Below, piece after piece: positions 7,354 through 39,909 of a stretch of DNA of 64,000 nucleotides. The stretch comes from an uncultured virus (IMG/VR IMGVR_UViG_3300005201_000352). Its lineage: Duplodnaviria > Heunggongvirae > Uroviricota > Caudoviricetes. The stretch is taken from IMG/VR virus record IMGVR_UViG_3300005201_000352; one strand, written 5' to 3'. Below the pieces are notes generated by a model. The model was not told where the DNA came from, made no database searches, and was given only the letters and a program-made list of their open reading frames with translations. Each line of letters starts with the position of its first letter. Position 1 is the first letter of the stretch. The translations under genes and the position numbers were made by a program.

Positions 7354-7367
7354 TTTTTTCTCCTTAA

Positions 7368-7757: not shown

Positions 7758-7767
7758 AAGCCCCTCC

Positions 7768-24087: not shown

Positions 24088-24686
24088 TTAAACCTCCCTG
24101 AAAGCATTTTCGACTTTCTTAATCAACGACCCGTCCTCTTTGGCCTGGACGTTGGTTGTGGGATCCGCTTGCTTTGACCTCAAAGAGATCATTATCTGAT
24201 CTTTCTTGAGTTCCTCTACGGAGTTTTTGAGCTTTGTGCCGCGTAAACCTTTGAGCTTATCCCGCGCGTACAGATACATGGGGTTGTCAACCTCTGTACC
24301 GTCCGCGTTCTTGAGTTTTTTGCCTCCGGCAAGTTCGTTTGCAGCAACTTCAACGACAGATTCGCCGACCTCTTCCAGTTGCTTGAGGGTTTCTTCCACT
24401 TTCTCGATGATTTCTTTCACCGGGGTTTCGGGGGGAAGTTCGAGAACTTCAAGAATGTCTTCTTTCAGTTCCTCTGCCTGTTCGTCCTCGTTCTTGCGAA
24501 GTTTATTCTCAAGACCGACGGCTGCGGCGATTTCTTCAAGCGTTATCGAGTTATTTGCAATAGCCGCTTTTAGAGCCGCGATAATTTCGTCTTTATTCAT
24601 ACCGTTTTTCTCCTTGGTATTTTTGGTTTTTTGCGCGATTGCGTTGAGAACCCGTCCGGCAAGCGCCTTGTCAGAAGTCGATTGCA
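24088..24686 (-). CDS. C-terminal (scaffold) part of the split protease-scaffold gene; internal start at 24600
   Basis: Acidic helical sequence; starts inside the att repeat (QSTS-DKAL); AAGGAG 9 nt before ATG 24600. Confidence 0.8.
24672..24686. repeat. Satellite att core, left copy CAGAAGTCGATTGCA
   Basis: Identical to 36407-36421. Confidence 0.95.
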
Positions 24687-25127
24687 CTATTTTTTATAAT
24701 TCCTTATGGGATATGGCTTTACGGTGTACCTATTATACGGTTTCTACAAATAACCCATAGAATAGGCATAAAAGCGGCATAAAATAGGCAGGGTAAGCCA
24801 GCCTTGCGGCAGGGCAAGCCCTCTTTGCCGTTGCCCCGGAATGGCGGGGCTTCTCGCGCGGCGGCGGCTCGCGGCATGGCAGGGAGCGATTGAACCTCAT
24901 GAAAGGGTCGGGCTGTTTATCAGATATAAACCAATACAACCTATACAACCCATACAATCTAGGCAAACACCCCGAATTTCGCGCAAGAAAGCCTCTTGGT
25001 GCGGTTTTGTGTCTAAATAAATAAAAGGGTAATTACAGATTATAAAACGTGATAGCGCGGCTTTAATGAGCAAATAAAGGCATTTTGAAATAACTCAGAG
25101 ATTAACGCTTTATAAAAATAAAAACCC

Positions 25128-25156
25128 TTGACAATTTGTTGTTTTTATACCACAAT
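25128..25156 (+). promoter_or_regulatory. Sigma70-like promoter of the TA operon
   Basis: TTGACA-17-CACAAT, ATG 6 nt downstream. Confidence 0.65.
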
Positions 25157-25162
25157 GTAATT

Positions 25163-25456
25163 ATGAAAATTAAAGAGGATGAGGCTTTTACAAAATGGTT
25201 TAAGAAACTGAGGGATGATCGAGCTAAGCATAAGATCAGGGCGCGGATTAGGCGGCTTAAAGAAGGCAACCCCGGAAACGTTGAGCCGGTAGGGGAAGGG
25301 GTATCAGAAATGAAAATTGATTATGGTCAAGGCTATAGGGTGTATTACTTGGATACAGGCAAAGAGATCATTATTTTGCTTTGCGGCGGTGATACAAAAA
25401 AGACACAACAGGCAGATATTGAAAATGCCAAAAAGATTGCCAGAGATTACAAATAG
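25163..25456 (+). CDS. RelE/ParE-family toxin (addiction module killer protein)
   Basis: FTKWFKKLRD..AKHKIRARIRRL..GNPG.VEPVGEGVSEMKIDYGQGYRVYY, LLCGGD. Confidence 0.92.
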   Translation: MKIKEDEAFTKWFKKLRDDRAKHKIRARIRRLKEGNPGNVEPVGEGVSEMKIDYGQGYRVYYLDTGKEIIILLCGGDTKKTQQADIENAKKIARDYK

Positions 25457-25464
25457 GGGGAATT

Positions 25465-25779
25465 ATGAAAACTAAGATTAACGAATTAAAAGATTGGGAC
25501 TTTGTTGAAGACATTAAAACTAAGGAAGATGTGATCGGTCTGTTAGAGGCAACTCTTGAATTAGCCATACAGGAAAATGATCCAGCGTTTTTATTTAAAG
25601 CAATTGGAGACATAGCAAAATCGGAAGGCATGGAACAACTGTCTAAAGAACTTAACCTTGATCGGTCTAGTTTATACCGTTCTTTTTCTCCAAAGGGAAA
25701 CCCGTCTTTTTTTACTGTTGCTAAGGTTTTAAATTATTTAGGATTACAACTAAGCGTGAAGCAAAAAGTACCAGCCTAG
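25465..25779 (+). CDS. HTH addiction module antidote (antitoxin)
   Basis: AIGDIAKSEGMEQLS...RSSLYRSFSPKGNPSFFTVAKVL. Confidence 0.92.
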   Translation: MKTKINELKDWDFVEDIKTKEDVIGLLEATLELAIQENDPAFLFKAIGDIAKSEGMEQLSKELNLDRSSLYRSFSPKGNPSFFTVAKVLNYLGLQLSVKQKVPA

Positions 25780-25796
25780 ACCGTTTCCAAAATGTC

Positions 25797-27056
25797 TTAA
25801 TATCTCCCGTGGAAAAATCCTCTTGCGTCATCGTCAAGAACTGTCATAACAGATTCAAGGTCTTCGGTAGCATACCGACACGCCGCGATAGCATCATCTT
25901 TGAACTTTACAGGTTCGTCTAACAGGTTGCCATCGCGATCTTCTCTCCACTTGTAAGAATTAACCTCTGAAACAAGTCCGGGGCAGGCAAGCGGATCAAT
26001 GTACCATGTCCCTCTGTTAAGCAATGAGATTTGTTCCTTTACGCTGTCCTTGCCCTTCTTCGCTCCTTCTATCCTGTACCCTTCCTGTTGCCATTGTTTA
26101 ATGCTCTTAGGCTCCGCGCTGTCCGCTATACATTTTTGTTTTTTACTTAGAATACCCTGATTTTCATTCTCAGCTATTATCTCATCGTTTGTCATGTGCC
26201 TGACATACAATTCACTGAATGAATATTTATCGCCGTCCTTTAACCCTATAAGTTCTATAGCGTTGTAATGGTTAAAGCCAAAATCTTGACCTGCTATTAT
26301 TTGATCAAAATCTTCCGGGCTATATGGACACGCTTGAATTTTTATGTTTCTAAAAACAAGGTTTCCCACGCTTCCCCATTTTCCCAAAGCGTAAATATCG
26401 TAATAAACCCTGTCTTGAAATTTCAACGCCTCTAATTTTTCTTTGTATTCACTGTCTAAAAATCTGTTGTCAATATATGTACTCTCATGGATTGTGGCTT
26501 TTTCTTTCTCTGTCTGGTTGTCAAAAAATCTTTTTTTTATCCAGTGGGTATCGCTTACGGGATTAAATAATAAGGTTATCTGAAATGGCACCTTTGCCTG
26601 TCCTCTTAACCTTAAATTCAACTGGTTAAATTCTTGCTCCGTGATCTCGGTCGCTTCTTCAATGAGTATGTCTGTCAATACTCCATTTTCAAACGTGATG
26701 GATTTTACTTTTTCAATATCATCTAACCCTAAATATTTGATCTGGTTGCCGTTGTGAATACAAGTCATAGTTCGGCTTGTTTTATTTTCACTTACGACTG
26801 GTTGTAGGTTCCACTGGTTTATAATTTTTCGTATTAACTGAATACAGCTAATACTAAGCGTTCTCTCTACCTTCCTGACAATAATATAATTATGCCCCGG
26901 CTCCGCTATGAATCGGTAAACGACCCGGCGATGTGCGTCTTCACTCTTGCCTGACCCTGCGCCTCCCTTGCAAATTATATAAGGTTTTCTGTCTTTCCAT
27001 AACGGTAAAAAATTATCATTGATCCACGCCGGGAGGGTTGAAAAATCAATCTCCAT
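25797..27056 (-). CDS. terL: Satellite terminase large subunit, PBSX family
   Basis: KGGAGSGKS, GLDDIEKVKS, IEEATE, FNP, STYIDN.FL, YALGKWG, GQDFGFN, ADSAEPKSI, DDAIAACRYA. Confidence 0.93.
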   Translation of the reverse strand: MEIDFSTLPAWINDNFLPLWKDRKPYIICKGGAGSGKSEDAHRRVVYRFIAEPGHNYIIVRKVERTLSISCIQLIRKIINQWNLQPVVSENKTSRTMTCIHNGNQIKYLGLDDIEKVKSITFENGVLTDILIEEATEITEQEFNQLNLRLRGQAKVPFQITLLFNPVSDTHWIKKRFFDNQTEKEKATIHESTYIDNRFLDSEYKEKLEALKFQDRVYYDIYALGKWGSVGNLVFRNIKIQACPYSPEDFDQIIAGQDFGFNHYNAIELIGLKDGDKYSFSELYVRHMTNDEIIAENENQGILSKKQKCIADSAEPKSIKQWQQEGYRIEGAKKGKDSVKEQISLLNRGTWYIDPLACPGLVSEVNSYKWREDRDGNLLDEPVKFKDDAIAACRYATEDLESVMTVLDDDARGFFHGRY

Positions 27057-27447
27057 CGGCGAACTCTTGCGGTAGCCCTATAGATATTTTCATATCGCCT
27101 TTCATTAACTGCTCTGTTTTATCTACCCACCCGATACATGGTTGTTTAAGTTTGAACTGTGCGAAGCTCGGCGGTATATCTCCTAACAGGGTATTTCTTT
27201 CAATGTAGTCTTCTTGTTTTTCGTGGATCCTCTGTATTAAATCAGAAAAATATTCGCCAAGCGGTTTGCTTTTAGCGTTTAATTTTGTGTCGTTAGCCCA
27301 TTCATAAATTCTCTGTTTAGCTATTTTGTGTTTAACACAAAATCCACAGACCGATGGATAGTTCTCTTTCTCAAGGTACTCTTCAAGTTCTGCTAAAAGC
27401 CTTAACCTTTCTTCTTGAGTATATTTTATCGGTTTCCCTACTTTCAA
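27046..27447 (-). CDS. terS: Satellite terminase small subunit (P22/Sf6 gp3-like)
   Basis: GKPIKY, PSVCGFC...IYEWA, AQFKLKQ..GWVDKTE; overlaps the terL start. Confidence 0.75.
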   Translation of the reverse strand: MKVGKPIKYTQEERLRLLAELEEYLEKENYPSVCGFCVKHKIAKQRIYEWANDTKLNAKSKPLGEYFSDLIQRIHEKQEDYIERNTLLGDIPPSFAQFKLKQPCIGWVDKTEQLMKGDMKISIGLPQEFADGD

Positions 27448-27559
27448 GATAACCTTCCCATAGTCCGCTTACCCTTAGAGAGAAGTTTAAAAATCCCGTT
27501 TTAAGCGTCTTGTCAGCCGTAGATAGCAGATTACCGCATACAGCCGAAACGCTCCAGTT

Positions 27560-27760
27560 TTACAAGACCCTTTTCTTTTCTTCCTCGGCGGTCAGCTTTG
27601 CAATGTACTCAATCGTGTTGAGATCGCCGTCTAACGCCCTGCCGATTAAACGCTGGCAGATACCTTCAAGATTTGTAACCCTTGAACCGTCCTCAAGTTC
27701 ACACTCGGCTTTATTAAGCTCGATTTTCATCTGTGCGGCGATCTCGGTCTTTAGGCTCAT
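27560..27760 (-). CDS. 66-aa protein resembling the core of the helper small terminase
   Basis: LEDGSRVTNLEGICQRLIGRALDGDLNTIEYI vs helper LENGSVEIISAKEAVVRKLINLAVAEGSFPAIKYL. Confidence 0.55.
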   Translation of the reverse strand: MSLKTEIAAQMKIELNKAECELEDGSRVTNLEGICQRLIGRALDGDLNTIEYIAKLTAEEEKKRVL

Positions 27761-27858
27761 GTGCTGCTCTCGGTTTTGCTTCCGCTACTGCCGCTCCCGC
27801 GCGACCAACCGCTCACCGGTCTGACTGACCCATCGGGTCTCCTGATAGTTCTATACAT
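27757..27858 (-). CDS. 33-aa R/G/S-rich peptide (not in the ORF track)
   Basis: AGGAGGG SD; MYRTIRRPDGSVRPVSGWSRGSGSSGSKTESST; ATGA overlap with the next gene. Confidence 0.6.
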   Translation of the reverse strand: MYRTIRRPDGSVRPVSGWSRGSGSSGSKTESST

Positions 27859-27883
27859 AATTTTACCCTCCTAAAAAATAATA

Positions 27884-28141
27884 TCATGGCTTTATTGCCC
27901 TTTCAAGGTCTTCAATCCTAATAAAAAAATCTTCAACAGGTTTTAACCCCATTTTATCCAACCAGTCATCTCTCTCTTTATTTGTATCAAACACCACTGA
28001 AAAAAAGTAACCTGAACACATCTCGTCTTTAAATTCCTGTTTACGTATATCGTCAAATTTAGCTACCTCTTTTTCTGATTCTTTCTCTAGCTCTTCAAGG
28101 GCTTCAACTCCCTTTTTTTCTTTTTGTAGTTTCCTTACCAT
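27884..28141 (-). CDS. Hypothetical protein coupled to the PP-loop gene
   Basis: 85 aa, YFFSVVFDTNKERDDWL; overlaps the upstream stop. Confidence 0.6.
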   Translation of the reverse strand: MVRKLQKEKKGVEALEELEKESEKEVAKFDDIRKQEFKDEMCSGYFFSVVFDTNKERDDWLDKMGLKPVEDFFIRIEDLERAIKP

Positions 28142-28902
28142 GTTTTACACATCTCCTTTTTCATTGCATATTTTCCAAACTGGGTGATTCTTTGCTTATG
28201 CCATTTTGTGTGAACCTTAAATCTTCTCAATCCCTGAGAGCCTATCAATGGGAACCAGTGACAGATCATTTTATAAGTTTCTGGACAATGCTCTTTTATT
28301 AAATTGATATTCCATGCTCTAGGTGATTCGAAACTTAACCCCCACAAACTATATTCAATAGGCAATAAACAATTATGTTTTTCAAGTATATCCTGTATGT
28401 CTTTCACTTGGAATGATGCAATAGGATAAAATTTGTTTCCATGAGAGCAACCGCATTTTGATAAATGCTGGTAACGCCTGATACCGTCCGTGTATCTTAA
28501 ACCTAAATGAAAAATAACATCTCCACCAACAGTGTCTGATAAAAATTTGTCAAACCGCTCTTTGGTGTGATCTTCTAAAACAGTGCCTATTCTGTTTCTG
28601 AATTTTTCCCTTGCCTTGACAGGATACTGATATAAGGCATTATCCAATTTTTCAGAAAATAATGTGCTGGGGAATTGATAGATTTTAACATTAAAATATT
28701 TCTCAAACCAGTCTATATAATTTTTAACCATAGGGAGGTCTTTAATAAAATAGTGGTAGACTAGAATGGGTTTAATTCCGTACTCTTTTAATCTTAAATA
28801 ACTGGCAACAGAATCGGCACCGCAAGAAAAATGAAGTATATTTGTCTTGTCTTTTAATGAACCAACTTTGCTCTGAAAGTCTCTCTCAATCTGTTCATTC
28901 AT
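28135..28902 (-). CDS. PAPS-reductase-like / PP-loop (adenine nucleotide alpha hydrolase) protein
   Basis: ILHFSCGADS PP-loop, GLRYTDGIRR, FYPIASF, LPIEYSLWGLSFE. Confidence 0.75.
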   Translation of the reverse strand: MNEQIERDFQSKVGSLKDKTNILHFSCGADSVASYLRLKEYGIKPILVYHYFIKDLPMVKNYIDWFEKYFNVKIYQFPSTLFSEKLDNALYQYPVKAREKFRNRIGTVLEDHTKERFDKFLSDTVGGDVIFHLGLRYTDGIRRYQHLSKCGCSHGNKFYPIASFQVKDIQDILEKHNCLLPIEYSLWGLSFESPRAWNINLIKEHCPETYKMICHWFPLIGSQGLRRFKVHTKWHKQRITQFGKYAMKKEMCKTW

Positions 28903-28908
28903 TATTAT

Positions 28909-28937
28909 ATTGTACCGCCTTTTATATATCTTGTCAA
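28909..28937 (-). promoter_or_regulatory. Sigma70-like promoter of the satellite packaging operon
   Basis: TTGACA-17-TACAAT, ATG 6 nt downstream. Confidence 0.7.
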
Positions 28938-29146
28938 GTGCAAACTTGCCCCTTTAAATCCCTCTGTAAAGAACATAACGCGCAACTGTCAATAATTACA
29001 TGATCATCATCGGTAACGCATTTTTTATTATCACATACAAAATAACATTTAATATGTTTCATTTTAGCATACCTTCTTGCACGATGGACAGTAGCAAATA
29101 CTTTATTACCTTTTCTATTTCTTATATCAAAAAAAATGTACATCAA
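28934..29146 (-). CDS. Hypothetical Cys-containing protein
   Basis: 70 aa, AGGGGG SD, co-oriented. Confidence 0.45.
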   Translation of the reverse strand: MMYIFFDIRNRKGNKVFATVHRARRYAKMKHIKCYFVCDNKKCVTDDDHVIIDSCALCSLQRDLKGQVCT

Positions 29147-29161
29147 AACCCCCTTTTAATC

Positions 29162-29671
29162 CTAATTGCAATATGGATCTCTGCCGGGAAAAATTGTGAT
29201 ACATTCATAGTAAAGAACACCATCGCAAACAAAATCACTGCCCGGGGGATTATTATTACGTCCCCCTAATATCTCCCCAAAACTCTTATAATAAGAACCA
29301 TCAGGATATACAAATTTATGATCCCGCTCTCTAGGGTTTATATATATAAACATTCCATAAAACGGATGACCCAATACATTAAATATTTCATTGACTATAT
29401 AATCCCTTACCGCAACCCTTACAGGTTCATTGGTAAAATACCCCGGCGCGTTGCCCGGTGTAATTTCGTTCAAATGTGCATGATCAAGCCCGGCTTTGAA
29501 CGAAGGACGCCACCCGGAATGTTTAGATAAATCTAACTCCGTAAATCCTGTTTGCGGCGCGTTTAGACGTACATAAACACGATAATTATCACCGAGGATT
29601 GTATATTCAAATTTTCTGAATTGTTCCCCCTCCATCTGTGAAAAATGTTGATCTAATTCTGATAATCTCAT
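29162..29671 (-). CDS. Hypothetical protein
   Basis: 169 aa, AGGAGG SD. Confidence 0.6.
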   Translation of the reverse strand: MRLSELDQHFSQMEGEQFRKFEYTILGDNYRVYVRLNAPQTGFTELDLSKHSGWRPSFKAGLDHAHLNEITPGNAPGYFTNEPVRVAVRDYIVNEIFNVLGHPFYGMFIYINPRERDHKFVYPDGSYYKSFGEILGGRNNNPPGSDFVCDGVLYYECITIFPGRDPYCN

Positions 29672-29845
29672 TCTCTCTCCTCCTGTTTCAATTGTTTATT
29701 TCCCCCTAACGGTATTTTGTGGGTTGTCTCAATGGTGTAGTCAAGCGTTTTTTTTCTCAGGCGATAAGAAAAATGTAATGCGACCGTATTCAACAGACGC
29801 AAATATAGCGGCTATCCATGCTTTCAGTTTTTCGTCAAGCTCCAA
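29668..29845 (-). pseudogene. Frameshifted paralogue of helper small gene 37765-37935
   Basis: GGAGG-7-TTG; MELDEKLKAWIAAIFASVEYGRITFFLSPEKK, then an A8 tract (29748-29755); with A7 it continues TLDYTIETTHK to an ATGA-coupled stop. Confidence 0.8.
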
Positions 29846-30380
29846 TTTTCCGCCTCCGTCTTAACGCCTGTTTGTGCTTTACTATGGCTATACCTGTCAT
29901 CGTGTAATCGGGATCGGTAAATCTCAATTCCAATTTCGTTAGCATTACTTGATCCGCTTTTGAAACTATGCCTAAATTTTCAAGTGTGCAATTATTTTTA
30001 TTGCCGTCAAGAAAAATAACGATTTGCCCCGGAGGTACTTTCCCGTTGACCTGCTCCCATAAATACGTGTGTTTGTTTCTCCATTTGCCGCTTTCGTCTT
30101 TTATTTTAATATAGCCATTCTTGTTTACGCGCTCAGTAAAAACCGGGTAAGGATCGTATTTCCCCCGTCCCTTAATAATTTTGTAATACCGCCTTAATGA
30201 TTTTACGCTTTGCCTTGTCATGTTAAAATTAAACCGCGTGTTTAACATTTCGCATAACTCGGTATCTGAATAATCGGCGGCCTTTGCCTTTATGAAGTCT
30301 ATAACTTCCTGGCTGTAGGTTTTTTCCCTGCCTTTCCTGCATATTCGCGGATCGTTTTTTTCAAACTTACTCATCGTCAA
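29835..30380 (-). CDS. HNH endonuclease (HNH_3-like)
   Basis: GYIKIK, KHTYLWEQVNGKVP, FLDGNKNNCTLENL. Confidence 0.85.
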   Translation of the reverse strand: MTMSKFEKNDPRICRKGREKTYSQEVIDFIKAKAADYSDTELCEMLNTRFNFNMTRQSVKSLRRYYKIIKGRGKYDPYPVFTERVNKNGYIKIKDESGKWRNKHTYLWEQVNGKVPPGQIVIFLDGNKNNCTLENLGIVSKADQVMLTKLELRFTDPDYTMTGIAIVKHKQALRRRRKIGA

Positions 30381-30675
30381 TGTCCCGGTTTAAAAGTGAT
30401 TTTTTCTTGCCTATTTTTTCCGGCGGCGGCAATGGTTTTTTAATGACTTCCGGGCTGTTTGGCAGTAACGGCAGATCGCCCATTGAAGGAAGCCCGTAAA
30501 TCTCCGCGCATTTTGCGATCAATGCCCCGTTTTTAACCGCTATTATTGCAAGGCCGCTAAACGCCTCGGATCGCCGTATCTCTTGATCCAGTTCATCGCC
30601 TTTCAGATCGTCATCGTTCAGTTTTTCCATAAGCTCAAATAAATGATTCTGTAAGTCCGTCAGTTTGTTTTTCAT
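30367..30675 (-). CDS. HNH-associated small helical protein (paralogue 1)
   Basis: MKNKLTDLQNHLFELMEKLNDDDLKGDELDQEIRR. Confidence 0.75.
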   Translation of the reverse strand: MKNKLTDLQNHLFELMEKLNDDDLKGDELDQEIRRSEAFSGLAIIAVKNGALIAKCAEIYGLPSMGDLPLLPNSPEVIKKPLPPPEKIGKKKSLLNRDIDDE

Positions 30676-31036
30676 GCCTTCCCCCTGTTAAATAATTCCA
30701 TGTCATTCATGGAGTAGCCCTCATCACGTAACGCATTGTCTAGCTCTGTCCAGTCTTTAGCAACCACGCACAACGCGCCGTTTTTCTCGGCTTCGTCTAA
30801 AAACTCTTTTTGCTCTTTGGACAGCCTCCGCCCTTCGGAGCTTTACATTCGACAAATAACGCCCTGCCATCAGGCAGCACCCCTATAATGTCCGATGATC
30901 CCACTTTGCCAAAGTGCATGAAATGACCGCTTGCCATTCTTACGCACCCGGTAGAATTTCGCCAATGGTAGATTTGCCTTGCCCTCAGATAGCTTAAACA
31001 CCCTTCAAGTACCATGCTCTCAGGCGTTTTTTTCAT
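30672..31036 (-). pseudogene. VRR-NUC nuclease with a 1-nt deletion near 30828
   Basis: GSSDIIG, FVECKAPKG; the expected RLSKEQKEFLDEAEKNGALCVVA continues in another frame to an ATGA-coupled stop. Confidence 0.8.
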
Positions 31037-31087
31037 TGTGCCATACCCTCCCTAAAAATTAAAAATAAAAAAAAAAAAGCCAATCGA

Positions 31088-31113
31088 CCGTTTGTGCTGA
31101 AAAGCACAAACGG
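31088..31113. repeat. Perfect hairpin CCGTTTGTGCT-GAAA-AGCACAAACGG
   Basis: 11-bp stem downstream of the rep gene, near an A-rich tract. Confidence 0.8.
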
Positions 31114-31236
31114 AATGTTTATTTTTATGTGCTATGCACATTTCTTATGTGTCTTATAAATTCGCCTCGCTCCGCTCGCTATAACCACCACCACTTACAA
31201 ACCACCACTAATATAATGTGTCTTTATAATGTGTAT

Positions 31237-31809
31237 TTATATGTGCTGGTTTCCTGCACAATCATNNNNNNNNNNNNNNNNNNNNNNNNNNNNNNNNNNN
31301 NNNNNNNNNNNNNNNNNNNNNNNNNNNNNNNNNNNNNNNNNNNNNNNNNNNNNNNNNNNNNNNNNNNNNNNNNNNNNNNNNNNNNNNNNNNNNNNNNNNN
31401 NNNNNNNNNNNNNNNNNNNNNNNNNNNNNNNNNNNNNNNNNNNNNNNNNNNNNNNNNNNNNNNNNNNNNNNNNNNNNNNNNNNNNNNNNNNNNNNNNNNN
31501 NNNNTGTGTTGGTTTCCTGCACAATACCGGGTCTTCGTATACCGTATATTTGGTTTCCCGCCTCTTGTTTCCCCCCTGCTCTTTTACCACATACCCCGCT
31601 TTTATTAGTTCGTTTAACGCCGCCTCCGTTGCATACCGACCGCTTGCGCTACGTGCGAATAAATCCCTTAAATGCAACTCCCATTGATCCGGTAATGACA
31701 GGCAATAAGCCAATAGACCTTTTGCCGCCCAAGACAATTCACAGTCTTGTATTGGCTCATTGTCCATTTGGAAAAATTCATCTTTGCGGTTCTTGCGCTT
31801 GATTATCAT
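31237..31809 (-). CDS. Satellite replication initiator (winged-helix), 3' end in an N gap
   Basis: LSWAAKGLLAYCLSLPDQW...GRYATEAALNELIKAGYV. Confidence 0.75.
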   Translation of the reverse strand: MIIKRKNRKDEFFQMDNEPIQDCELSWAAKGLLAYCLSLPDQWELHLRDLFARSASGRYATEAALNELIKAGYVVKEQGGNKRRETKYTVYEDPVLCRKPTXXXXXXXXXXXXXXXXXXXXXXXXXXXXXXXXXXXXXXXXXXXXXXXXXXXXXXXXXXXXXXXXXXXXXXXXXXXXXXXXXDCAGNQHI

Positions 31810-31815
31810 ACCGGT

Positions 31816-32067
31816 TTATGCCATGCTGTTTAGAATTTTATCCGCCGCTTCCCCTGCATCGTGATCCGATAACGCCCTGTTTCTGAAAGCGTAAGCCTCA
31901 AGATCGCATCGCCTGAAATACATCTTTTTTCCGCCCGGCTTGTATGCCGTTAGTTTTTTGGCATGAACCAACTGGTAAATAAAGCCCGGTTTAAGTTTCA
32001 AAAATGCCGCCGCTTCGTCTACGCCAAGCGGTTCTTCATGAATCTGGTTCTCAATCTGGTCTTTCAC
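31816..32067 (-). CDS. Excisionase-like HTH_17 protein
   Basis: LGVDEAAAFLKLKPGFIYQLV...YKPGGKKMYFRRCDL. Confidence 0.85.
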   Translation of the reverse strand: MKDQIENQIHEEPLGVDEAAAFLKLKPGFIYQLVHAKKLTAYKPGGKKMYFRRCDLEAYAFRNRALSDHDAGEAADKILNSMA

Positions 32068-32085
32068 ATAATCCTCCTATGTTTA

Positions 32086-32388
32086 TTATTCTTTTAATGC
32101 AACTACAAGAGACGAATTCAGACGCGATTTTAACGCCCCGGAAGGACGGAAGAAAATAACGCGCTTCTTCGGAACATTCACGCGCTCCATAGTTTTTGGG
32201 TTGTGCCGGGTTTGGGCTTTTCGTTCCCTTTGCGTAAATGTACCAAAGCCCCGAAGCTCTATAGTCTGTCCCTCGATGAGCGCGGCGGCCATGCTGTCAA
32301 TAACCAGCGCCGTAATTTTTTGCGCTTCTTTAATCCCTGCCTTGATCAGTATTTTGTTAATACTGGACCGGGTGAATTTGTCTTTCAT
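32086..32388 (-). CDS. HU/IHF-family DNA-bending protein
   Basis: IELRGFGTF..RERKA..RHNPKTMERVNVP....FRPSGALK. Confidence 0.92.
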   Translation of the reverse strand: MKDKFTRSSINKILIKAGIKEAQKITALVIDSMAAALIEGQTIELRGFGTFTQRERKAQTRHNPKTMERVNVPKKRVIFFRPSGALKSRLNSSLVVALKE

Positions 32389-32594
32389 TTTTCCGGCTTG
32401 CTCCCTATCAAAATTATGCTTGCGTTCAACTGGTAACGCGCCTTTGGATTGTCCGGGTTGATAATTTTTCCGTTTCCGTAAAATCCGCAACTTCCAGTAG
32501 AAAAGTTTTTTGGCATGGCGTGGATTGTTCCCCATTGCTTGCCGTTGTGCATTATTTCAAGCGTCAAGAATTCCGGGGCTTTTTCGTCTGTCAT
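32385..32594 (-). CDS. Small conserved-looking hypothetical protein
   Basis: PKNFSTGSCGFYGNGK...YQ......IGSK; coupled stops and starts. Confidence 0.55.
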   Translation of the reverse strand: MTDEKAPEFLTLEIMHNGKQWGTIHAMPKNFSTGSCGFYGNGKIINPDNPKARYQLNASIILIGSKPEK

Positions 32595-32821
32595 GGTTTT
32601 ACCTCCATTGTTGATTCGCGTATGTTTATATATACGCTCTCGCCTTCCATGTTCTTGTATTCAAGGTTGTTTCCCTTGTTATAGCCGCCTATTGATCCCC
32701 ATGCGTCAACCAGCGAAAAGCCCTCGGCGTTTAACAGTGCATCCAGTTTTTGGGTGATAGGGGACATAACATCAATGACTGATTTATTAACAGTTCCCTG
32801 TTCGTTTTTCTCTTGGTTCAT
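32591..32821 (-). CDS. Hypothetical protein
   Basis: 76 aa, ATGA-coupled on both sides. Confidence 0.5.
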   Translation of the reverse strand: MNQEKNEQGTVNKSVIDVMSPITQKLDALLNAEGFSLVDAWGSIGGYNKGNNLEYKNMEGESVYINIRESTMEVKP

Positions 32822-33054
32822 GCTTGCACCTTCCTGTAAATGCTTCTGTGTTTGTTTATACAGCTAACTTTTCTAGTGCCGTATGAATTCCGATAGTCCC
32901 TCATTCGGCGCATTGTTACGTCCGGCAGTGTCCATTTTGCCACCTCGTAGACTTTTTTAACCATGTTGTATAACTGCCACCCGGTGAATTCCGCGCCCAT
33001 CGGCAGACCGTCAATGACGGATCGTACCGCCTCAGTTAAATTCTTGTACTTCAT
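32818..33054 (-). CDS. Small basic, possibly winged-helix protein
   Basis: 78 aa, FTGWQL...DVTMRRMRDYR; coupled. Confidence 0.5.
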   Translation of the reverse strand: MKYKNLTEAVRSVIDGLPMGAEFTGWQLYNMVKKVYEVAKWTLPDVTMRRMRDYRNSYGTRKVSCINKHRSIYRKVQA

Positions 33055-33788
33055 TTTACACCTCCCATAAATATTTTCTTCTTATCCTTATATCTGAGAT
33101 CGCCTTTTACCTCTTTCTTTATTCTGTTGCTCATTGCTAGAGTAAGACGCGCCATTATTAAAAATGTTTTAGTAGTTTCTATATCATCATATTTACAACC
33201 CATCTTGCTCATCATTATCAATTCAGAATTTTTAACACATAATAAATTGTCAAGATTAAAATCCTGTTTGTTACCATTTGCAAATAGTATCAAATATCCA
33301 TTTGGAACCTTGCCGTTTTTCTGCTCCCATAAATATCTATGCTTTGTAACATAATCCTTTCTTGGGTTTCCTGTATTACTAACCCTTATATATATTTCTA
33401 CACCCTTTTTTACTTCCCTTCCTATTTTGCTTTTGTATATTTTTATTTTATATTTGCTTGCATAAACCCCAATAGTATCTTTACTTTTATTGGTTTTATA
33501 GTATTCATTAAATTTTTTTGTTATATCATCAATAGTGTTATTTATTGCCAGTTGTCTTATATATTCAATTTTATCTGGTGTGAAAAAATAATTTTTTCTT
33601 TTACACATTATACCAACTTTTATATTTCTATATTTTGCATGATCTCTTATTTGATCCAGTTTTAAGACAGTATTAAACTGTTTATTAAATGCGTCTGTTA
33701 AGCCTCTATAATCATAGAGATTTGAATTTGCTTTTAACCAATTCAACATATCCTGTGAAAATAAAAACCTAACAGACGTTTTTTTCAC
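33051..33788 (-). CDS. HNH endonuclease (HNH_3-like) with duplicated N-terminal helical repeat
   Basis: KHRYLWEQKNGKVP, FANGNKQDFNLDNL; AT-rich. Confidence 0.85.
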   Translation of the reverse strand: MKKTSVRFLFSQDMLNWLKANSNLYDYRGLTDAFNKQFNTVLKLDQIRDHAKYRNIKVGIMCKRKNYFFTPDKIEYIRQLAINNTIDDITKKFNEYYKTNKSKDTIGVYASKYKIKIYKSKIGREVKKGVEIYIRVSNTGNPRKDYVTKHRYLWEQKNGKVPNGYLILFANGNKQDFNLDNLLCVKNSELIMMSKMGCKYDDIETTKTFLIMARLTLAMSNRIKKEVKGDLRYKDKKKIFMGGVK

Positions 33789-34087
33789 ACCTTGCCTCTT
33801 CTATTCCCTGGGATAGCAAGCAGGCTCTTTCTTTCTTTGTCCAAAATAAATGTTTCTGCTTCACTCTTTGGAAGTAATGGAACCTCATCATTTACAGGTA
33901 TTCCATAGAGGGTATCAACACACTTGATCATCAATGCGCCGTTTGCAACCGCTGTTTTTGCAAGTTCATTTATTGAGGCCGCTCTCTCTATCTCTTCTTT
34001 GAGTGCTTCCCCTTTTAAGTTATCATCATTTATTTTTTCAATCATTGAAAATAAATGATTCTGTAAATCTGATAATCTGTTTTTCAT
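33785..34087 (-). CDS. HNH-associated small helical protein (paralogue 2)
   Basis: MKNRLSDLQNHLFSMIEKINDDNLKGEALKEEIER. Confidence 0.75.
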   Translation of the reverse strand: MKNRLSDLQNHLFSMIEKINDDNLKGEALKEEIERAASINELAKTAVANGALMIKCVDTLYGIPVNDEVPLLPKSEAETFILDKERKSLLAIPGNRRGKV

Positions 34088-34302
34088 ATTTCACACCCCC
34101 CGTTAATCATTTCCAATCTTGCCTTTGATGTTTCAATGAAATGGATTGCTAACCCGTTAAATAACAGGGCATTCTGCAAAACTGCTTCTAGTTCCGCTCC
34201 CTGTAACCTGTTGTCTTCTAATCTGTGGATGTAATCCCAAAGACCCCTCTGTAAGTCTGCCAGTCTGATAGTGTTTGTGTTCAATAGTTCCCTACTGTTC
34301 AT
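34084..34302 (-). CDS. Diverged paralogue 3 of the same family
   Basis: RLADLQRGLWDYIHRLEDNRLQGAELE; GGAGG SD. Confidence 0.6.
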   Translation of the reverse strand: MNSRELLNTNTIRLADLQRGLWDYIHRLEDNRLQGAELEAVLQNALLFNGLAIHFIETSKARLEMINGGCEI

Positions 34303-34366
34303 ACCACCCTCCTGTGGTTGCCTTAGCAACCTGTTAATTTATTTAAGGCTCAAGCCTTATAATATA

Positions 34367-34516
34367 ATTATGCCCCTAGTAGGTGCATTTTGTCAATAGA
34401 TATAATAAAAAAAAATCAAAAAAAATAAAGATTTTTTCTGGTTCTGCCTTACATCTGTATAGTAAAATGCCCCTAGTAGTGGTATTTATTGACTTTTTAT
34501 AGAGCTATGGTATATT
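34367..34516. promoter_or_regulatory. Divergent promoters with two operator-like repeats
   Basis: Leftward TTGACA-18-CATAAT; rightward TTGACT-16-TATATT; ATGCCCCTAGTAG at 34370 and 34467. Confidence 0.65.
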
Positions 34517-34522
34517 AAGGGT

Positions 34523-34792
34523 ATGGGAAACAAGACCGATAATAAAAGTATGAAGGTAGAGCAAGGTGAATATTTTACCGTTGCCGATATGTCTAAAGAG
34601 CTTAATGAGTCTTTAGAAACAATTAAATCACGTATTAAGCGATTAGGTAAAAAGCCCCTTGCAAGAGATGCCCTCTACGAAAAATCGGTATTGGATGCTC
34701 TGAGAAATACGCCGGGTAAGGGTCGCCCCAAAAAAGCCCCGGAAAAACCCGTTGCTAAAAAAACACCCGCCGCTAAAAAGACCAAGAAATAA
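34523..34792 (+). CDS. HTH DNA-binding protein, candidate satellite repressor
   Basis: YFTVADMSKELNESLETIKSRIKR, GRPKK and a basic tail; divergent from the main operon. Confidence 0.6.
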   Translation: MGNKTDNKSMKVEQGEYFTVADMSKELNESLETIKSRIKRLGKKPLARDALYEKSVLDALRNTPGKGRPKKAPEKPVAKKTPAAKKTKK

Positions 34793-34833
34793 ATACTTAT
34801 AAAACATATAAAGTTTTATGCCGATATAAAAGC

Positions 34834-35064
34834 ATGAAGAAACTTATTGATAGACAAAACCGCCTATTTGAAATGTTAGAAAAAATTACGGATGATAATC
34901 TAACAGGCGAAGCACTGGATCAGGAAATCAAGCGGGTTAGAAAATTGGTTCAAGCAGAAAAAAAAGAAATTGCCAAAGATAGTAAAGTACATAATGCAAT
35001 AAAACCCCAAACAACCACCGATAAAAAACCGCCCCGGAAAAAACAAGGCAAGGTTAAAAAATGA
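34834..35064 (+). CDS. Truncated paralogue 4 of the HNH-associated family with a basic tail
   Basis: KLIDRQNRLFEMLEKITDDNLTGEALDQEIKR. Confidence 0.65.
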   Translation: MKKLIDRQNRLFEMLEKITDDNLTGEALDQEIKRVRKLVQAEKKEIAKDSKVHNAIKPQTTTDKKPPRKKQGKVKK

Positions 35065-35186
35065 CGGGAGAATTCGCCGCTCTCCAAAAAAAATATTTAG
35101 AAAAAATAGAGGAATACGCCGCGAAACGGTCTATAAGCATTGAACAGGCAAGGGCGGAATTAAGCGCGGCGGGAATTAACCTGTAA
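35061..35186 (+). CDS. 41-aa hypothetical peptide
   Basis: ATGA-coupled; MTGEFAALQKKYLEKIEEYAAKRSISIEQARAELSAAGINL. Confidence 0.4.
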   Translation: MTGEFAALQKKYLEKIEEYAAKRSISIEQARAELSAAGINL

Positions 35187-35195
35187 GCCCCGTAC

Positions 35196-36242
35196 TCAAT
35201 TTACTTTTAGCTCAGGCAATGCGTTGACCGCTTCCCTCTTCATTTTGTCGGTCGCTTTGGCGTAGACTTGCGTTGTCTTTACGTCCGTGTGTCCCATTAG
35301 TTTAGAAAGCGTGTAAATATCTACTCCGTTTTCAAGAGACATAACCGCGAAGGTATGCCGCGCCGTGTGCCAAGAAGCAATTTTTTTTATACCGGCTGTT
35401 TTACAAATATCTTTTATAGTCTTGTTATTCCATCGGCTTATCGTTGGGAATATTTTGTCGGCGTGGTTATGGATTTTCCCATCGTTTATTAGCTTCCATG
35501 CCGTATCATTTAACGGAATGTAAACTATATTTTTTGTTTTTGTTTGTTTCATAATTAGCTGTAACGGGTTATATTGAATATGTCCCCATTCAAGAGACCT
35601 TAAATCTGATATTCTTAATCCGGTATTGCACCCGAATAAAAAAGCCCGTCTAACCGTTTCGACCGTTTTATATTTTGTTTTCATCAATGCTATACGTTGC
35701 AGTTCATCGGCATTTAAGAATATTTTGTTTGGATCGTTTCGTTTTATCTTTTTTATTCCAAGAGTTGGATCCGTTGCTATAAGGTGTTCCCGCATTGCCA
35801 ATTTTAGCGCGTGGCGGATTTGCGCCTCATAGGTTGATGCGGTTGTCGGTTTAACACAGTTGGTTGTTAAATATTCCTGATATTTTATAAGCCATGCGGT
35901 TGTTACCTGCTTTAGCTGGATAACCGCGCCGCCCGGAAAGTTCTTTAAATAATGCAGTGAACTTGTTATAATATTTTGTACTGCCGGGGCTCCTTTGGCT
36001 TTTATTTTTTCCAAGTAGGAATAAAGACTGATATTGCCGCCGACCGGATCGGTTATTCCCCATGCGCTGGTTAAGATTTGCAATTCTCTTTTTGCCCGGC
36101 AAATTTCCGCAACCTTTAGAATTTCCTTGTTTGTTTCTTTGTCGGTCGATAACGAAATTTTAAGGGCTTCCCATTTTCTTGCTCCGTTGTGATAAATGTC
36201 CAAGTATAGCCGCCTGTTTTTCGTGCGGATTTTTACGCTCAT
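35196..36242 (-). CDS. int: Tyrosine integrase of the satellite
   Basis: Arm-binding N-terminus LYLDIYHNG; GLRISD, KTK, HTARHTF, LMGH, TQVY catalytic set. Confidence 0.95.
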   Translation of the reverse strand: MSVKIRTKNRRLYLDIYHNGARKWEALKISLSTDKETNKEILKVAEICRAKRELQILTSAWGITDPVGGNISLYSYLEKIKAKGAPAVQNIITSSLHYLKNFPGGAVIQLKQVTTAWLIKYQEYLTTNCVKPTTASTYEAQIRHALKLAMREHLIATDPTLGIKKIKRNDPNKIFLNADELQRIALMKTKYKTVETVRRAFLFGCNTGLRISDLRSLEWGHIQYNPLQLIMKQTKTKNIVYIPLNDTAWKLINDGKIHNHADKIFPTISRWNNKTIKDICKTAGIKKIASWHTARHTFAVMSLENGVDIYTLSKLMGHTDVKTTQVYAKATDKMKREAVNALPELKVN

Positions 36243-36406
36243 AAAAGTTCCTTATGCCATATAGTTTTTTGTTTCTACAAATAGGTATTGAGAAACAACA
36301 AAAAACATAAAGCAATATAAAATATAATCAAATAAACTACTTATATTATAATACATAATAATACAATGTAAACTAAAATAAAATATAATAAAAAATAATT
36401 CGATAG

Positions 36407-36421
36407 CAGAAGTCGATTGCA
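36407..36421. repeat. Satellite att core, right copy CAGAAGTCGATTGCA
   Basis: Identical to 24672-24686; 165 bp from the integrase start. Confidence 0.95.
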
Positions 36422-37142
36422 GGTTTACCGCCGCCTTCCGAAACACTTTGCCATTTTTTACAAGCTCTTCACTTTCGCTTTCCATATCGACAGCGCCCTT
36501 TTCAATGAGCGCCATGATTGCCGCTTCATCAGCAGAATTGCCGACTTTTACTTCCATCGCACCTTGCGGGACAAGATCGTTTCTTGGTCTGCCAAGTTCT
36601 TTGGTAATGTAAACTTTGCCGTCGTTTCCCCTAACAGGTTCTGCTTCGGTAACGATTGATAATTCAGGAATACCGGCTTTAAACGACCTTATAAGAGCAG
36701 CATTTGAACCGTTCCAGCCCTCCGGCGGAACCATAATGCGGAAGTAACACACTCCTTCTTTCTCGCTCTGCATTTGGAGTTCACCGCCAATAGTGTAAAA
36801 ATCATCGCCTTGAGTCTCGTGTCCGTCTTTGCTTCCCGGTATTGGATACTGTTTCAGATAATCCAGTAAAGACTGGAAATATTCATGTGTGTATATCCCA
36901 CCTGCTCCCTCAGTGGGGACTTGGACGGCTTCCACAAACTCATACGCGCCTTCGGCTTTGATTGCGTCAAGAGCTTTCTGCGGTATGAGTACCGGGATTT
37001 TTTCCGGCACTGGAAGATCGGGCGTTGCTTTATTTTTCAGGCGTAGACGCGTTGACTGGTTATACAGTTTCCGTACTACCACCGCCGCCTCCGTTTGCCG
37101 CTTCTGCTTCTTTGATCTTGATAGCGGCGATAAGATCAGCAT
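36407..37142 (-). CDS. N-terminal (prohead protease) part of the split protease-scaffold gene; start uncertain
   Basis: YTHEYF...PGSKDGH, ELSIV, NDLVPQGA resemble prohead protease His/Ser/acid motifs; reads ...VNLQSTS into att, then AT-rich nonsense. Confidence 0.75.
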
Positions 37143-37647: not shown

Positions 37648-37674
37648 TTTTCCTCCCTAATTAATTTTAGACAC

Positions 37675-37711
37675 AAAAAAAGGCGCACCTATCCCGAAAG
37701 ATGATGCGCCT
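37675..37711 (-). terminator. Intrinsic terminator upstream of the head operon
   Basis: AGGCGCATCATC-TTTCGG-GATAGGTGCGCC followed by T7. Confidence 0.8.
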
Positions 37712-37738
37712 CTGTATCTCAGTCAGCGTTATATTTTG

Positions 37739-37768
37739 ATTTTAAGGCTAAATTCTAATTTCTGTCAA
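37739..37768 (-). promoter_or_regulatory. Candidate promoter just upstream of the terminator
   Basis: TTGACA-18-TAAAAT. Confidence 0.5.
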
Positions 37769-37935: not shown

Positions 37936-38107
37936 CGTCCCCTCCGATGATTAAATCCTTGTATCCCAAGCGGAACAAGATTACGGCACACCACCGCAAT
38001 CTTGTCAGAATTGGGCTACCTAACATGACGCGCAAGAGCCGCCTGCTATTGTCGTCTACTGTTTTCCTTACGCTCTTGCGGAGCTGTTTGTCTCTTTTAG
38101 TACTCAT
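37907..38107 (-). CDS. Small basic hypothetical protein
   Basis: 66 aa, TAATG-coupled to the upstream gene. Confidence 0.5.
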   Translation of the reverse strand: MSTKRDKQLRKSVRKTVDDNSRRLLRVMLGSPILTRLRWCAVILFRLGYKDLIIGGDDGVKREAVG

Positions 38108-39378
38108 TATAAACCTCCATGCGCTTTATCAATCCTTGCCAAAAAATCCTTCTGCTCTTGCGTCCCCTCAATCGCCTCCAAGTCCTCTTTCATTTCTTCG
38201 CGTAACGATGCTAGTATTTCTTCATCTGTTTTTAATCTCGGGACAAGCTGGCACATACAATTAGGATGAAGTGGGCAGTCAATGGGGTTGCCGTCTTTGT
38301 CAACCATATTGTCAACATCATAAGGACTGCCTAGAGCCAGCTCCTCACAACGGCACGACCATGAATCACGCCCTCGATCCATTACCCAGTCTACTAGCCC
38401 ACTGGATATATCGCTGTTTCTAGCTATCTCCTTTTGTTCATCAGATAGAAAATTTCCCATCTCAGTACGCGCAATTCGTATAGCCCTGTAATCCAGCCCT
38501 GCCTTACCCAGCCTGGTTGCATACTGCCTCACTGCGTCCGGTAATCGTGGAGTGCCGCGCTTCGTTGTCTCAGCCATTTTCTGCCTGACCCAATCCTGCG
38601 CGTCTGGCTGTCTGAGCAACGCTCTTGCGGCGTCGCTCCCCGGTTGTAAGCCTCCGTGATCCTTGAGGTACTCACGCGCCCACGCCTCTTTGCGTCCAGC
38701 CTCGGTGTTCGGGAACATTCCCATCCAGCGTCCCACTACCCGCTCACCACCGTCTTTGTAGTTGATGTACGTCTCAAGGTCACTACTAATTTGCTTCACG
38801 TTCCGCCCTGCCGCCCTGCCTCCGCGTATCACGTCAAAGACAGCTTTCTCTTGTTCCTCTACGGCTTTCCACACCTGCGATGACAAGTCGGCGCGTTTGC
38901 GGAACTGGTACTCAAGCGGGAGGTCGTCCCACACTATCTTCCCTGTCTGCGGGTCGCGGTGGTAAGAAGCAAGACCGCTTGTGCCATAGCCCCAACCGCG
39001 CCCCTTGGTCTTGATTATCTTTCCAACCGGCTCTCTCGCGTTTTCTAACCTTCGCTGTCTCGCGTTCTCTTGCGATTCGGGTCTGTGGTGCAGAGTAACA
39101 CCCAGCTTCTCGGCAAGGGAAGCCTCCATGTCGTCTTGGAGTTTCCTTGCCGCTTCGACGGGCTTCGCGGCTTCTTCCAGAATAATCGCTGTTATATCGT
39201 GCGCCAATTTCTCTACGGGAAACACAATGCTTCTTGTCTCGGCAAATTCCTTAACAAGAGGCAAGACACATTCCCTTGTTTTAGCTCTTATTTTTCTTGC
39301 TGCTTCTAACTCTGCCCTTTCTGTTAGGCTTGAAAGTTCTCTTTGTTTCTTAAAATACTCTTGGCGCGTTATTTCCAT
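38107..39378 (-). CDS. Head morphogenesis / minor capsid protein (SPP1 gp7, Mu F-like)
   Basis: RAIRIARTEM, CRCEELA, PLHPNCMC. Confidence 0.85.
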   Translation of the reverse strand: MEITRQEYFKKQRELSSLTERAELEAARKIRAKTRECVLPLVKEFAETRSIVFPVEKLAHDITAIILEEAAKPVEAARKLQDDMEASLAEKLGVTLHHRPESQENARQRRLENAREPVGKIIKTKGRGWGYGTSGLASYHRDPQTGKIVWDDLPLEYQFRKRADLSSQVWKAVEEQEKAVFDVIRGGRAAGRNVKQISSDLETYINYKDGGERVVGRWMGMFPNTEAGRKEAWAREYLKDHGGLQPGSDAARALLRQPDAQDWVRQKMAETTKRGTPRLPDAVRQYATRLGKAGLDYRAIRIARTEMGNFLSDEQKEIARNSDISSGLVDWVMDRGRDSWSCRCEELALGSPYDVDNMVDKDGNPIDCPLHPNCMCQLVPRLKTDEEILASLREEMKEDLEAIEGTQEQKDFLARIDKAHGGL

Positions 39379-39902: not shown

Positions 39903-39909
39903 CGCTCTT

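Follow-up and report, generated by a model that had tools for sequence, protein, structure and literature searches.

The DNA analysed, here called the window, is a 64,000-nucleotide record of an uncultured virus (IMG/VR IMGVR_UViG_3300005201_000352; Duplodnaviria, Heunggongvirae, Uroviricota, Caudoviricetes). It hosts a complete prophage and, lodged within a head gene of the prophage, an integrative island. Prophage and island each encode a large terminase subunit (TerL). The two proteins belong to different families, and end with a common peptide. The island is probably a helper-embedded satellite provided with a foreign terminase, whose flexible tail matches the portal of the helper prophage; the enzyme would dock on this portal and load island DNA.

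One C-terminal tail on two terminase families

The satellite TerL (P0001, 419 aa) and the helper TerL (P0002, 495 aa) are encoded by the minus-strand open reading frames (ORFs) 25797-27056 and 41338-42825, and terminate with VLDDDARGFFHGRY and MIDDIARGFFHGRG, respectively; the peptide closing the satellite tail is DDDARGFFHGRY. The tract common to both is acidic-aromatic, and fits the motif DD.ARGFFHGR. At the DNA level, positions 25804-25837 and 41345-41378 are identical at 29 of 34 sites, and the flanks show no likeness on either side. By a binomial estimate, a match of at least 29/34 has a probability of 3.8e-13 per alignment, and of about 0.0015 across all offset pairs in the window. ORF translations and alignment thus bear out the peptide and DNA matches reported in a first-pass annotation of the window. 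The pairwise comparison, in which low body identity and a terminal spike were expected, gave just this picture: the sole significant segment found by BLASTP corresponds to the last 14 residues (10/14 identical, E 4e-4), all the remaining ones having E values of at least 18. Seven of the 10 identical tail residues are specified by the same codon, and the 34-bp patch features three synonymous differences and two replacements.

The bodies belong to different subfamilies, as the same annotation had held; the GGAGSGKS and PYRHGKS motifs are both present, and the Pfam families differ. P0001 passes the gathering score of both PBSX-type models, Terminase_3 (3.7e-46; 157.7 bits, cutoff 23.2) and Terminase_3C (1.1e-12; 49.0 bits, cutoff 26.7). 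P0002 matches Terminase_6N and Terminase_6C instead. All the 56 columns invariant in a 31-sequence family alignment are retained in P0001. They include the Walker A GGAGSGKS, the acidic pair after Walker B and the nuclease aspartates, which we take to be the catalytic residues. The AlphaFold2 (AF2) model has a mean predicted local distance difference test score (pLDDT) of 88.5 and is confident to about residue 403; only residues 404-419 score below 50. The folded body is predicted to stop near residue 403, and the last 16 or so residues to be flexible; residues 404-419 thus make up a short peptide, of predicted flexibility, placed at the extreme C-terminus after a conserved body. Because the invariant columns are all shared and the model is of this quality, the satellite TerL looks functional.

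Tails vary widely within each family. Among the best 120 PBSX-family sequences, a tail could be defined in 103, query included; the other 17 are fragments, intein forms or proteins with long extensions. The body is conserved to ..DDAIAACRYAxE, and is followed by a hypervariable tail. The FFHGR end was found in the window protein (1/103) and in none of the 102 others; hence the tail is not a general trait of PBSX TerLs, common whatever the portal, which was the outcome held to speak against the initial proposal. In the helper family, 120 of 121 sequences have a conserved ..HDDQVDNLSAGY, after which the tail varies. Tails change without changes in the body, because P0122, 93% identical to the helper TerL, ends with ..GITVKEIPVFGI, a class that goes with phrog_145 portals: a natural tail swap. 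A search for further TerLs ending with ARGFFHGR had been suggested, and the co-resident pair is all that was found; the back-translated peptide has 11 matches in 2.9 million IMG/VR contigs, none of them (0/11) at a TerL end. Similarly, VGSA[KR]IVY followed by a stop codon gave no match in IMG/VR.

Both families also include many relatives of 550-830 aa that host intein or LAGLIDADG domains (PF14890, PF14528, PF05204), such as P0029, P0040, P0049, P0055, P0062 and P0108 in addition to P0133, P0158, P0170-P0203 and others. At L353:10001-12273, the TerL frame spans three overlapping ORFs around an insert of the intein/LAGLIDADG type.

The relationships of the satellite TerL were analysed in a tree restricted to bodies (49 PBSX-family proteins out of the best 70, 395-440 aa long and with a definable tail; FastTree, midpoint root). 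A basal grade features stable ..S.LDV[IL] tails; in a derived subclade, the tail type changes on almost every short branch. The sister of P0001 is P0003 (..TDEEKFFFFGRI), followed by P0004, P0005 and P0007 (..FFFGA/R, WFFGAA), and P0009 (..SVGSARIVY) is nested among them. The four nearest relatives (74-77% identical) all carry a tail of the same class, an acidic run plus FFFG[RA], which matches a class of the helper family (P0123-P0129). The acidic + FF.G class is therefore older than the present pairing. The idea that the satellite grafted the helper tail onto its motor is accordingly too simple, though the exact ARGFFHGR is indeed common to the helper only. The latter fits a tuning to the present helper, achieved either through selection or through a short conversion patch subsequently retained.

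Alternatively, the shared tail might be a neutral by-product of gene conversion or illegitimate recombination, involving about 34 bp of two terminase genes 15.5 kb apart, and have no role in docking. Confinement of the identity to a short patch with nothing alike beside it, the use of the same codon for most identical residues, and the co-residence and co-orientation of the two genes would all suit such an origin. This is nevertheless quite unlikely, as a tail of this class is already present in the nearest relatives of the satellite TerL, which come from other samples, a further five tail types are common to the two TerL families, and tail type tracks portal family in ordinary phages (see below). 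A very recent copy is in addition at odds with the synonymous differences and replacements accumulated in the patch.

Tail types and portal families

The last nine residues of every PBSX-family tail were scored against all the Terminase_6-family tails, taking as null the best scores of 1,030 shuffled controls, the highest of which is 31. This value is exceeded by 6 of the 103 PBSX-family tails. The window pair P0001/P0002 ranks highest (score 43, ARGFFHGR), and is followed by P0057/P0157 (42, SVGSAKIVY), P0009/P0148 (42, SVGSARIVY), P0045/P0135 (39, ALYEW), P0010/P0161 (37, SWAPV.GI) and P0066/P0197 (33, SVG.ADI.Y). ARGFFHGR, identical at 8/8 residues, is exclusive to the co-resident pair, the other Terminase_6 tails of the class (P0123-P0129) being of the type ..[LI]AFFHG[RSN]G. 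On average, the best tail scores are no higher or lower than the null (15.4 vs 15.5). The cross-family signal is a handful of striking matches, with no general likeness.

Tails were compared with portals in loci of both families. Out of 79 TerL genes, 69 have a downstream ORF of at least 380 aa; these ORFs were clustered at identities of at least 30% over at least 200 aa. Genes followed by window-type portals (27-61% identical to the product of 39910-41337) have tails in which an acidic run is combined with a basic or aromatic end. A second portal cluster is associated with Terminase_6 tails ..GV.T..L.G[VI] and PBSX tails ..GVTTVQLR[IV], ..RVIIGRHTGI and ..TVMIGDYAV; the portals are 37-42% identical across families, and all those tested (6/6) are phrog_145. 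In a third cluster, in which 4/4 tested portals are phrog_146, Terminase_6 tails ..[SA]LY..[WDY] are found together with PBSX tails ..S[IM]LDV[IL].

In a first test, made on 10 x 52 dereplicated tails, the cross-family tail score was 3.33 for 126 same-cluster pairs vs -0.41 for 394 different-cluster pairs (label-permutation p 0.024). A larger test included 284 TerL-portal pairs, in which TerL scored at least 150 bits and had a complete end; 8 duplicate loci were skipped. Scores were 3.49 (421 same-cluster pairs) vs 0.97 (11,047 different), a difference reached by none of 2000 label permutations (p = 0.0005). For 14 of 67 tails, vs 6.9 expected, the best cross-family match belonged to the same portal cluster, and one more shared tail type, ..LGL/..GGI, was found. 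Tail type follows portal family, not TerL family, in a correlative manner, as would be expected of a portal-docking code. The tail had been proposed as a barcode predicting satellite-helper pairs. It does predict portal type across families, but is not by itself a satellite marker, because PBSX TerLs of ordinary phages share Terminase_6 tail types when their portals are of the same family.

We tentatively suggest, rating the chance a little below even, that the last 10-20 TerL residues may be a portable portal address code, mounted on unrelated scaffolds and exchanged far faster than the bodies. Satellites would stay infectious by tuning the code to the portal of the current helper.

P22 TerL deprived of residues 483-499 loses binding to the procapsid portal (PMC5290284), and according to reviews it is by means of charged and hydrophobic C-termini that TerL of T3, lambda, SPP1 and P22 attaches to the portal (PMC13595956, PMC5389665). 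The part available of the report on the HK97 motor structure describes an asymmetric contact with the portal clip, and gives no atomic detail on the tail (PMC10359639). Like the tails of P22 gp2, lambda gpA, T3 gp19 and SPP1 G2P, the window tail is a short charged and hydrophobic peptide following the nuclease domain, for which flexibility is predicted. It has no sequence similarity to them, and its occurrence on two unrelated TerL scaffolds of one satellite-helper pair is new.

The tail might be functional and yet have a partner different from the portal. This could be another helper component inherited with the portal, as the adaptor, the capsid vertex or the scaffold, or TerL itself, if the tail takes part in autoinhibition or oligomerisation. 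The comparative signal is a covariation with the portal gene cluster, from which linked neighbouring head genes are not separated, and would be compatible with such partners. They are unlikely, since published deletion and peptide work on P22, T3, lambda and SPP1 assigns portal binding to the very C-terminus of TerL (PMC5290284, PMC13595956, PMC5389665). The small terminase subunit (TerS) is similarly disfavoured: the satellite has its own, unrelated putative TerS, and a TerS contact would therefore not need mimicry of the helper.

The probable satellite island and its helper prophage

The features of the island and of the helper are listed in Table 1. The island has a GC content of 38.3%, vs 45.3% and 43.8% in the flanks, and is delimited by exact 15-bp direct repeats, plausibly the core of the attachment (att) sites. 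Its insertion site was deduced from L268, a 50-kb IMG/VR viral contig syntenic with the helper from the ParB-like genes through the connector genes (identity 69% for TerL, 61% for the portal, 63.5% for the capsid). L268 lacks the island, and features one intact gene of 438 aa between minor-head and cement/capsid genes. The window counterpart is split into two fragments 11.7 kb apart. When the 11,735 bp between the cores are deleted in silico, a single open frame of 439 aa is restored, 60.6% identical to the L268 protein over 436 aa. Public sequencing runs containing 33000-42000, in which reads bridging the island might occur, were looked for, and none was listed.

Table 1. Coordinates of the terminase tails, the island and the helper genes in the window
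Feature	Position	Strand	Basis or remarks
C-terminal tail of island TerL, last 13 codons and stop	25797..25837	-	ends DDDARGFFHGRY
Island (satellite) large terminase P0001, PBSX/Terminase_3 type, 419 aa	25797..27056	-	Pfam; PHROG terminase large subunit
Helper large terminase P0002, Terminase_6 type, 495 aa	41338..42825	-	tail DDIARGFFHGRG encoded at 41338-41378
Helper portal, 475 aa	39910..41337	-	starts one base after TerL stop; fold match
Integrative island, 11,735 bp counting one core copy	24687..36406	-	GC, repeats, gene content
Left copy of 15-bp direct repeat CAGAAGTCGATTGCA (att core)	24672..24686	.	exact repeat
Right copy of 15-bp att core CAGAAGTCGATTGCA	36407..36421	.	exact repeat
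N-terminal fragment of interrupted helper head gene	36252..37142	-	L268 residues 6-226 match 37070-36408, 70%
C-terminal fragment of interrupted helper head gene (scaffold-like, charged, helical)	24088..24729	-	L268 residues 214-426 match 24729-24133, 51%
Tyrosine integrase, 348 aa, island right end	35196..36242	-	Pfam Phage_integrase, Phage_int_SAM_5, Arm-DNA-bind_5; PHROG integrase
HTH_17 protein (excisionase/AlpA-like by family; putative role)	31816..32067	-	Pfam HTH_17 1.2e-10
Putative small terminase, 133 aa, overlaps TerL start	27046..27447	-	position and size; GP3_package E 9.5e-5, below Pfam cutoff
HigB-like toxin (Gp49) and antidote (HigA-like) pair, island left end	25136..25779	+	phrog_3445 / phrog_4268; Pfam Gp49, dnstrm_HI1420
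Helper TerS-like ORF (DUF5681)	42770..43144	-	67% identical to pre-TerL ORF of L268
Helper minor head protein (SPP1 gp7-like)	38107..39378	-	PHROG head morphogenesis / minor head; syntenic in L268
Helper major capsid candidate, 397 aa	22392..23585	-	position; no family match; 63.5% identical to L268 402-aa ORF in same place

In addition to the genes in Table 1, the island hosts divergent small ORFs and genes for HU, a DnaD/replication-initiator-like protein, a PAPS-reductase-like protein and two HNH + phrog_2044 pairs. None of its ORFs has a capsid, portal, tail or lysis family match in Pfam or PHROG, and none exceeds 255 aa apart from TerL and the integrase. No relative of the integrase was found by a single-protein search of IMG/VR, and no known defence system was detected in the island by PADLOC. 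The putative TerS has no similarity detectable by BLASTP to the TerS-like ORF upstream of the helper TerL; because the two differ, the island would bring its own DNA-recognition subunit.

The island thus features an integrase, regulators, replication and packaging genes, a size of 11.7 kb within a satellite range of about 10-15 kb, and no recognisable structural or lysis genes, as satellites do. It lies inside a head-morphogenesis gene, between direct repeats, and the interrupted gene, integrase, TerS and TerL are all co-oriented on the minus strand. The labels satellite and helper are well founded, because this content and insertion fit the configuration of helper-embedded phage-inducible chromosomal islands (PICIs); excision and mobilisation are presumed. 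The PBSX-type TerL had been ascribed to a satellite from the start, and it does reside in a discrete integrase-bearing island, within a prophage that owns another TerL and a portal.

Several details of the insertion were also noted. The N-terminal half of the head gene continues for ~52 hydrophobic codons into island DNA (36252-36406), and a GTG (24687) lies exactly at the junction of the C-terminal half; each half might thus still be produced on its own as long as the island is present. A 13-nt exact repeat, GTTTCTACAAATA, is found inside both island ends (24740-24752 and 36271-36283), 68 and 136 nt from the cores, and may be an arm-type integrase site, or a product of chance. HNH endonuclease genes (phrog_1891) preceded by a phrog_2044 gene occur twice in the island, at 29835-30675 and 33051-34087 (-), with a DNA repeat (30518-30675 / 33930-34087) 70% identical. 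The same pair is found beside a TerL relative in L173 (1987-3385), and looks like a mobile or duplicated cassette.

Two other partitions of the window were considered and rejected. The 34-bp tail copies are not att sites, as the integrase would fall in the middle of the element, and the true junctions are at 24672-24686 / 36407-36421. The 3.4-36.2 kb region is not a separate prophage with its own TerL: a portal is missing there, capsid and tail genes are missing upstream, and the two parts belong to one phage because they are joined in L268.

Relatives 57-73% identical to the satellite TerL are terminases of ordinary phages with a portal downstream, as in G224 (a prophage in a 3-Mb genome), G002/L012, L353, L348-L352 and L357-L364; L353, a 49-kb record rated complete, has no Terminase_6 gene. 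Neither G001 nor five viral records hosting PBSX-type relatives yielded a Terminase_6-family gene. That the PBSX-type clade is satellite-specific was accordingly discarded, phages with their own portals being represented by G224, G002/L012, L353 and L357-L364. L173 differs. Its TerL is 81% identical to that of the satellite, and the tail SSVGSAKIVY is identical at 10/10 residues to the end of the Terminase_6-family protein P0157. No portal-sized ORF is found within 6.5 kb after this TerL; HNH (phrog_1891) and phrog_2044 genes and the toxin-antidote families of the window island are found instead. By its gene content, L173 appears as a second island-like case.

These relatives bring in the possibility that the island is the remnant of a second prophage that, once inserted in the first, was stripped of structural genes, leaving TerL as a relic. 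The presence of a portal gene directly downstream of close TerL relatives in whole phages would suit this hypothesis. It is very improbable, given that the open frames of this compact island are tightly packed, its 15-bp repeats are precise and its integrase is intact; TerL keeps all the invariant residues, and in a decaying relic one would not expect identity between its tail and that of the TerL of its carrier. The similar gene set of L173, which also has no portal, equally argues against it.

Along the minus strand, in order of decreasing coordinates, the helper features early and replication genes (64-46 kb; single-stranded DNA-binding protein, two DNA methylases, Gp157), ParB-like genes, a TerS-like ORF, TerL, portal, HNH, minor head and a low-GC stretch; after the latter come genes for cement-like, capsid, connector, tape-measure, tail-fibre and amidase proteins, as far as 3.4 kb. 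Beyond the amidase end lie a tRNA-Met and a gene for a Bmp-family lipoprotein, the latter resembling host DNA. No helper integrase was seen inside the window. The host is probably a termite-gut spirochaete, judging from the names of homologues (Treponema, Termitinemataceae, Spirochaetia). The 39910-41337 protein has no Pfam or PHROG match, and some of its homologues feature PF06381, one being named portal. Its AF2 model (pLDDT 82.6) has a portal fold: the best Foldseek match is phiCD508 (E 4.5e-20, template modelling score 0.64/0.68), followed by SaPI1/80alpha, T7, SPP1 and lambda portals, the top matches listed being solved portal or portal-vertex entries.

Other helper loci deserve mention. 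An HNH endonuclease gene (phrog_3377, 3.6e-51) at 39369-39938 (-) is wedged between portal and minor head, and is absent there in L268. Directly preceding the TerS-like gene are three ParB-N-like ORFs in a row (43145-45835, -), one of which has a fused methyltransferase domain; they are conserved in L268. Between tail-fibre gene and amidase (4647-9081, -) are found a PGA_cap ORF (CapA-like, 6.3e-58), a Mur ligase M+C ORF (CapB-like) and a DXD glycosyltransferase, possibly phage cargo for poly-gamma-glutamate synthesis or surface modification. The tRNA-Met (2854-2927, -) adjoins the lysis end of the prophage, with the lipoprotein gene beyond; this region likely marks the boundary between prophage and host.

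A proposed packaging route and its counterparts in known satellites

The proposed cycle would start with excision of the island after induction, which would restore the helper head gene. The helper would then build procapsids, and the satellite terminase would use its own TerS to recognise satellite DNA. By means of the matched tail, the satellite TerL would dock on the helper portal (39910-41337), competing with the helper TerL, and helper capsids would be filled with satellite DNA. Excision, dependence on the helper and tail-portal contact are steps that we infer, the second from the insertion site and the lack of structural genes. A role of the tail in docking is suggested by the comparative pattern, the predicted flexibility and published work. 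A co-fold of two portal copies with residues 375-419 of the satellite TerL gave a score of 0.00, with controls not run, and speaks neither for nor against binding.

Some observations weigh against this route, or against the evidence on which it is founded. With its head gene interrupted, the helper may not be viable as long as the island stays inserted. The contact between tail and portal in this pair is deduced from comparisons, and only one co-resident satellite-helper pair was found, none of the 391 loci examined having two TerL genes more than 1.5 kb apart. The other five PBSX-family proteins with Terminase_6-like tails are encoded by contigs of 1.3-3 kb, and may belong to ordinary phages. 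In the larger tail-portal test, 'portal' stands for the first ORF of at least 380 aa within 4.5 kb downstream; 10 portal representatives were checked by PHROG, and only that of the window by fold. The cross-family phrog_146 portals are only 25-31% identical and the likeness of their tails is loose, and the permutation tests ignore relatedness among sequences. Linkage could account for part of the covariation: because the tail is encoded adjacent to the portal gene, joint transfer of the two could add to the signal. The satellite TerL tail is itself not linked to any portal gene. Lastly, the assignment of TerS is weak (GP3_package E 9.5e-5, below the Pfam cutoff), and 12 of the 26 island ORFs, all of 169 aa or less, have no family match. 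Neutral copying, a partner other than the portal and a prophage remnant jointly take up about a third of the probability; docking on the helper portal is still the explanation that we consider probable.

The island resembles several known satellites. Like the PICIs and the Staphylococcus aureus pathogenicity islands (SaPIs) that encode a small terminase, it is a capsid-less element that would redirect helper packaging to its own DNA. As far as is known, classical PICIs and SaPIs supply TerS only, and use the helper TerL. The window island, in contrast, supplies its own TerL of another family, and the contact with the helper would therefore shift from TerS-TerL to TerL-portal. Satellite-encoded packaging enzymes are shared with the capsid-forming PICIs (10.1101/2022.09.08.507074); these elements are described as encoding capsid and portal themselves, the helper contributing only the tails, and no candidate portal or capsid ORF is found in the island. 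The capsid, portal and head-tail connector genes by which capsid-forming PICIs are recognised are thus lacking. PLE, the satellite of vibriophage ICP1, similarly targets the DNA-packaging step of the helper in its own favour; its packaging depends on ICP1 factors, and a TerL of its own with a mimicked tail is not described in the available text (10.1101/2024.04.22.590561).

The closest parallel is provided by the helper-embedded PICIs (HE-PICIs) of enterobacterial lambdoid prophages, in which, according to the passages available, the interrupted gene is expressed whole only after satellite excision (Tommasini, Mageeney & Williams 2023, PMC10111431). Integrase, a protein of the AlpA/helix-turn-helix type, replication zone and insertion interrupting a gene are common features. 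As far as those passages go, HE-PICIs have Gram-negative lambdoid helpers, 14-15 mapped sites and one integrase clade; the window features spirochaete-named relatives, a scaffold-like head gene as target and an integrase with arm/SAM_5 domains in the style of Bacteroidota. A heterologous TerS and TerL with a helper-matched tail also sets the island apart from what they describe (PMC10111431). The window extends the helper-embedded configuration beyond enterobacterial lambdoid phages.

In the literature searchable as full text, with subscription journals and supplements outside, no satellite TerL mimicking the helper C-terminus and no tail codes across TerL families were found. Helper-embedded satellites and portal-binding TerL C-termini are already known; the novelty lies in a satellite without a capsid that brings an entire heterologous terminase, the tail of which matches that of the helper.

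To our knowledge, satellites hijack packaging in two ways, with a small terminase that re-aims the helper motor or with a complete capsid. The window island lacks a capsid and comes with an entire motor; a peptide of ~10 residues is its one visible adaptation to the helper. If this peptide is a portal address, the window offers a natural experiment on the still unresolved TerL-portal interface, and a sequence rule to match satellites and helpers in uncultured communities; the hypervariability of terminase C-termini would be explained as well. Should the address code prove true, satellites, helpers and portals could be paired from metagenome sequence alone, and packaging motors perhaps retargeted.

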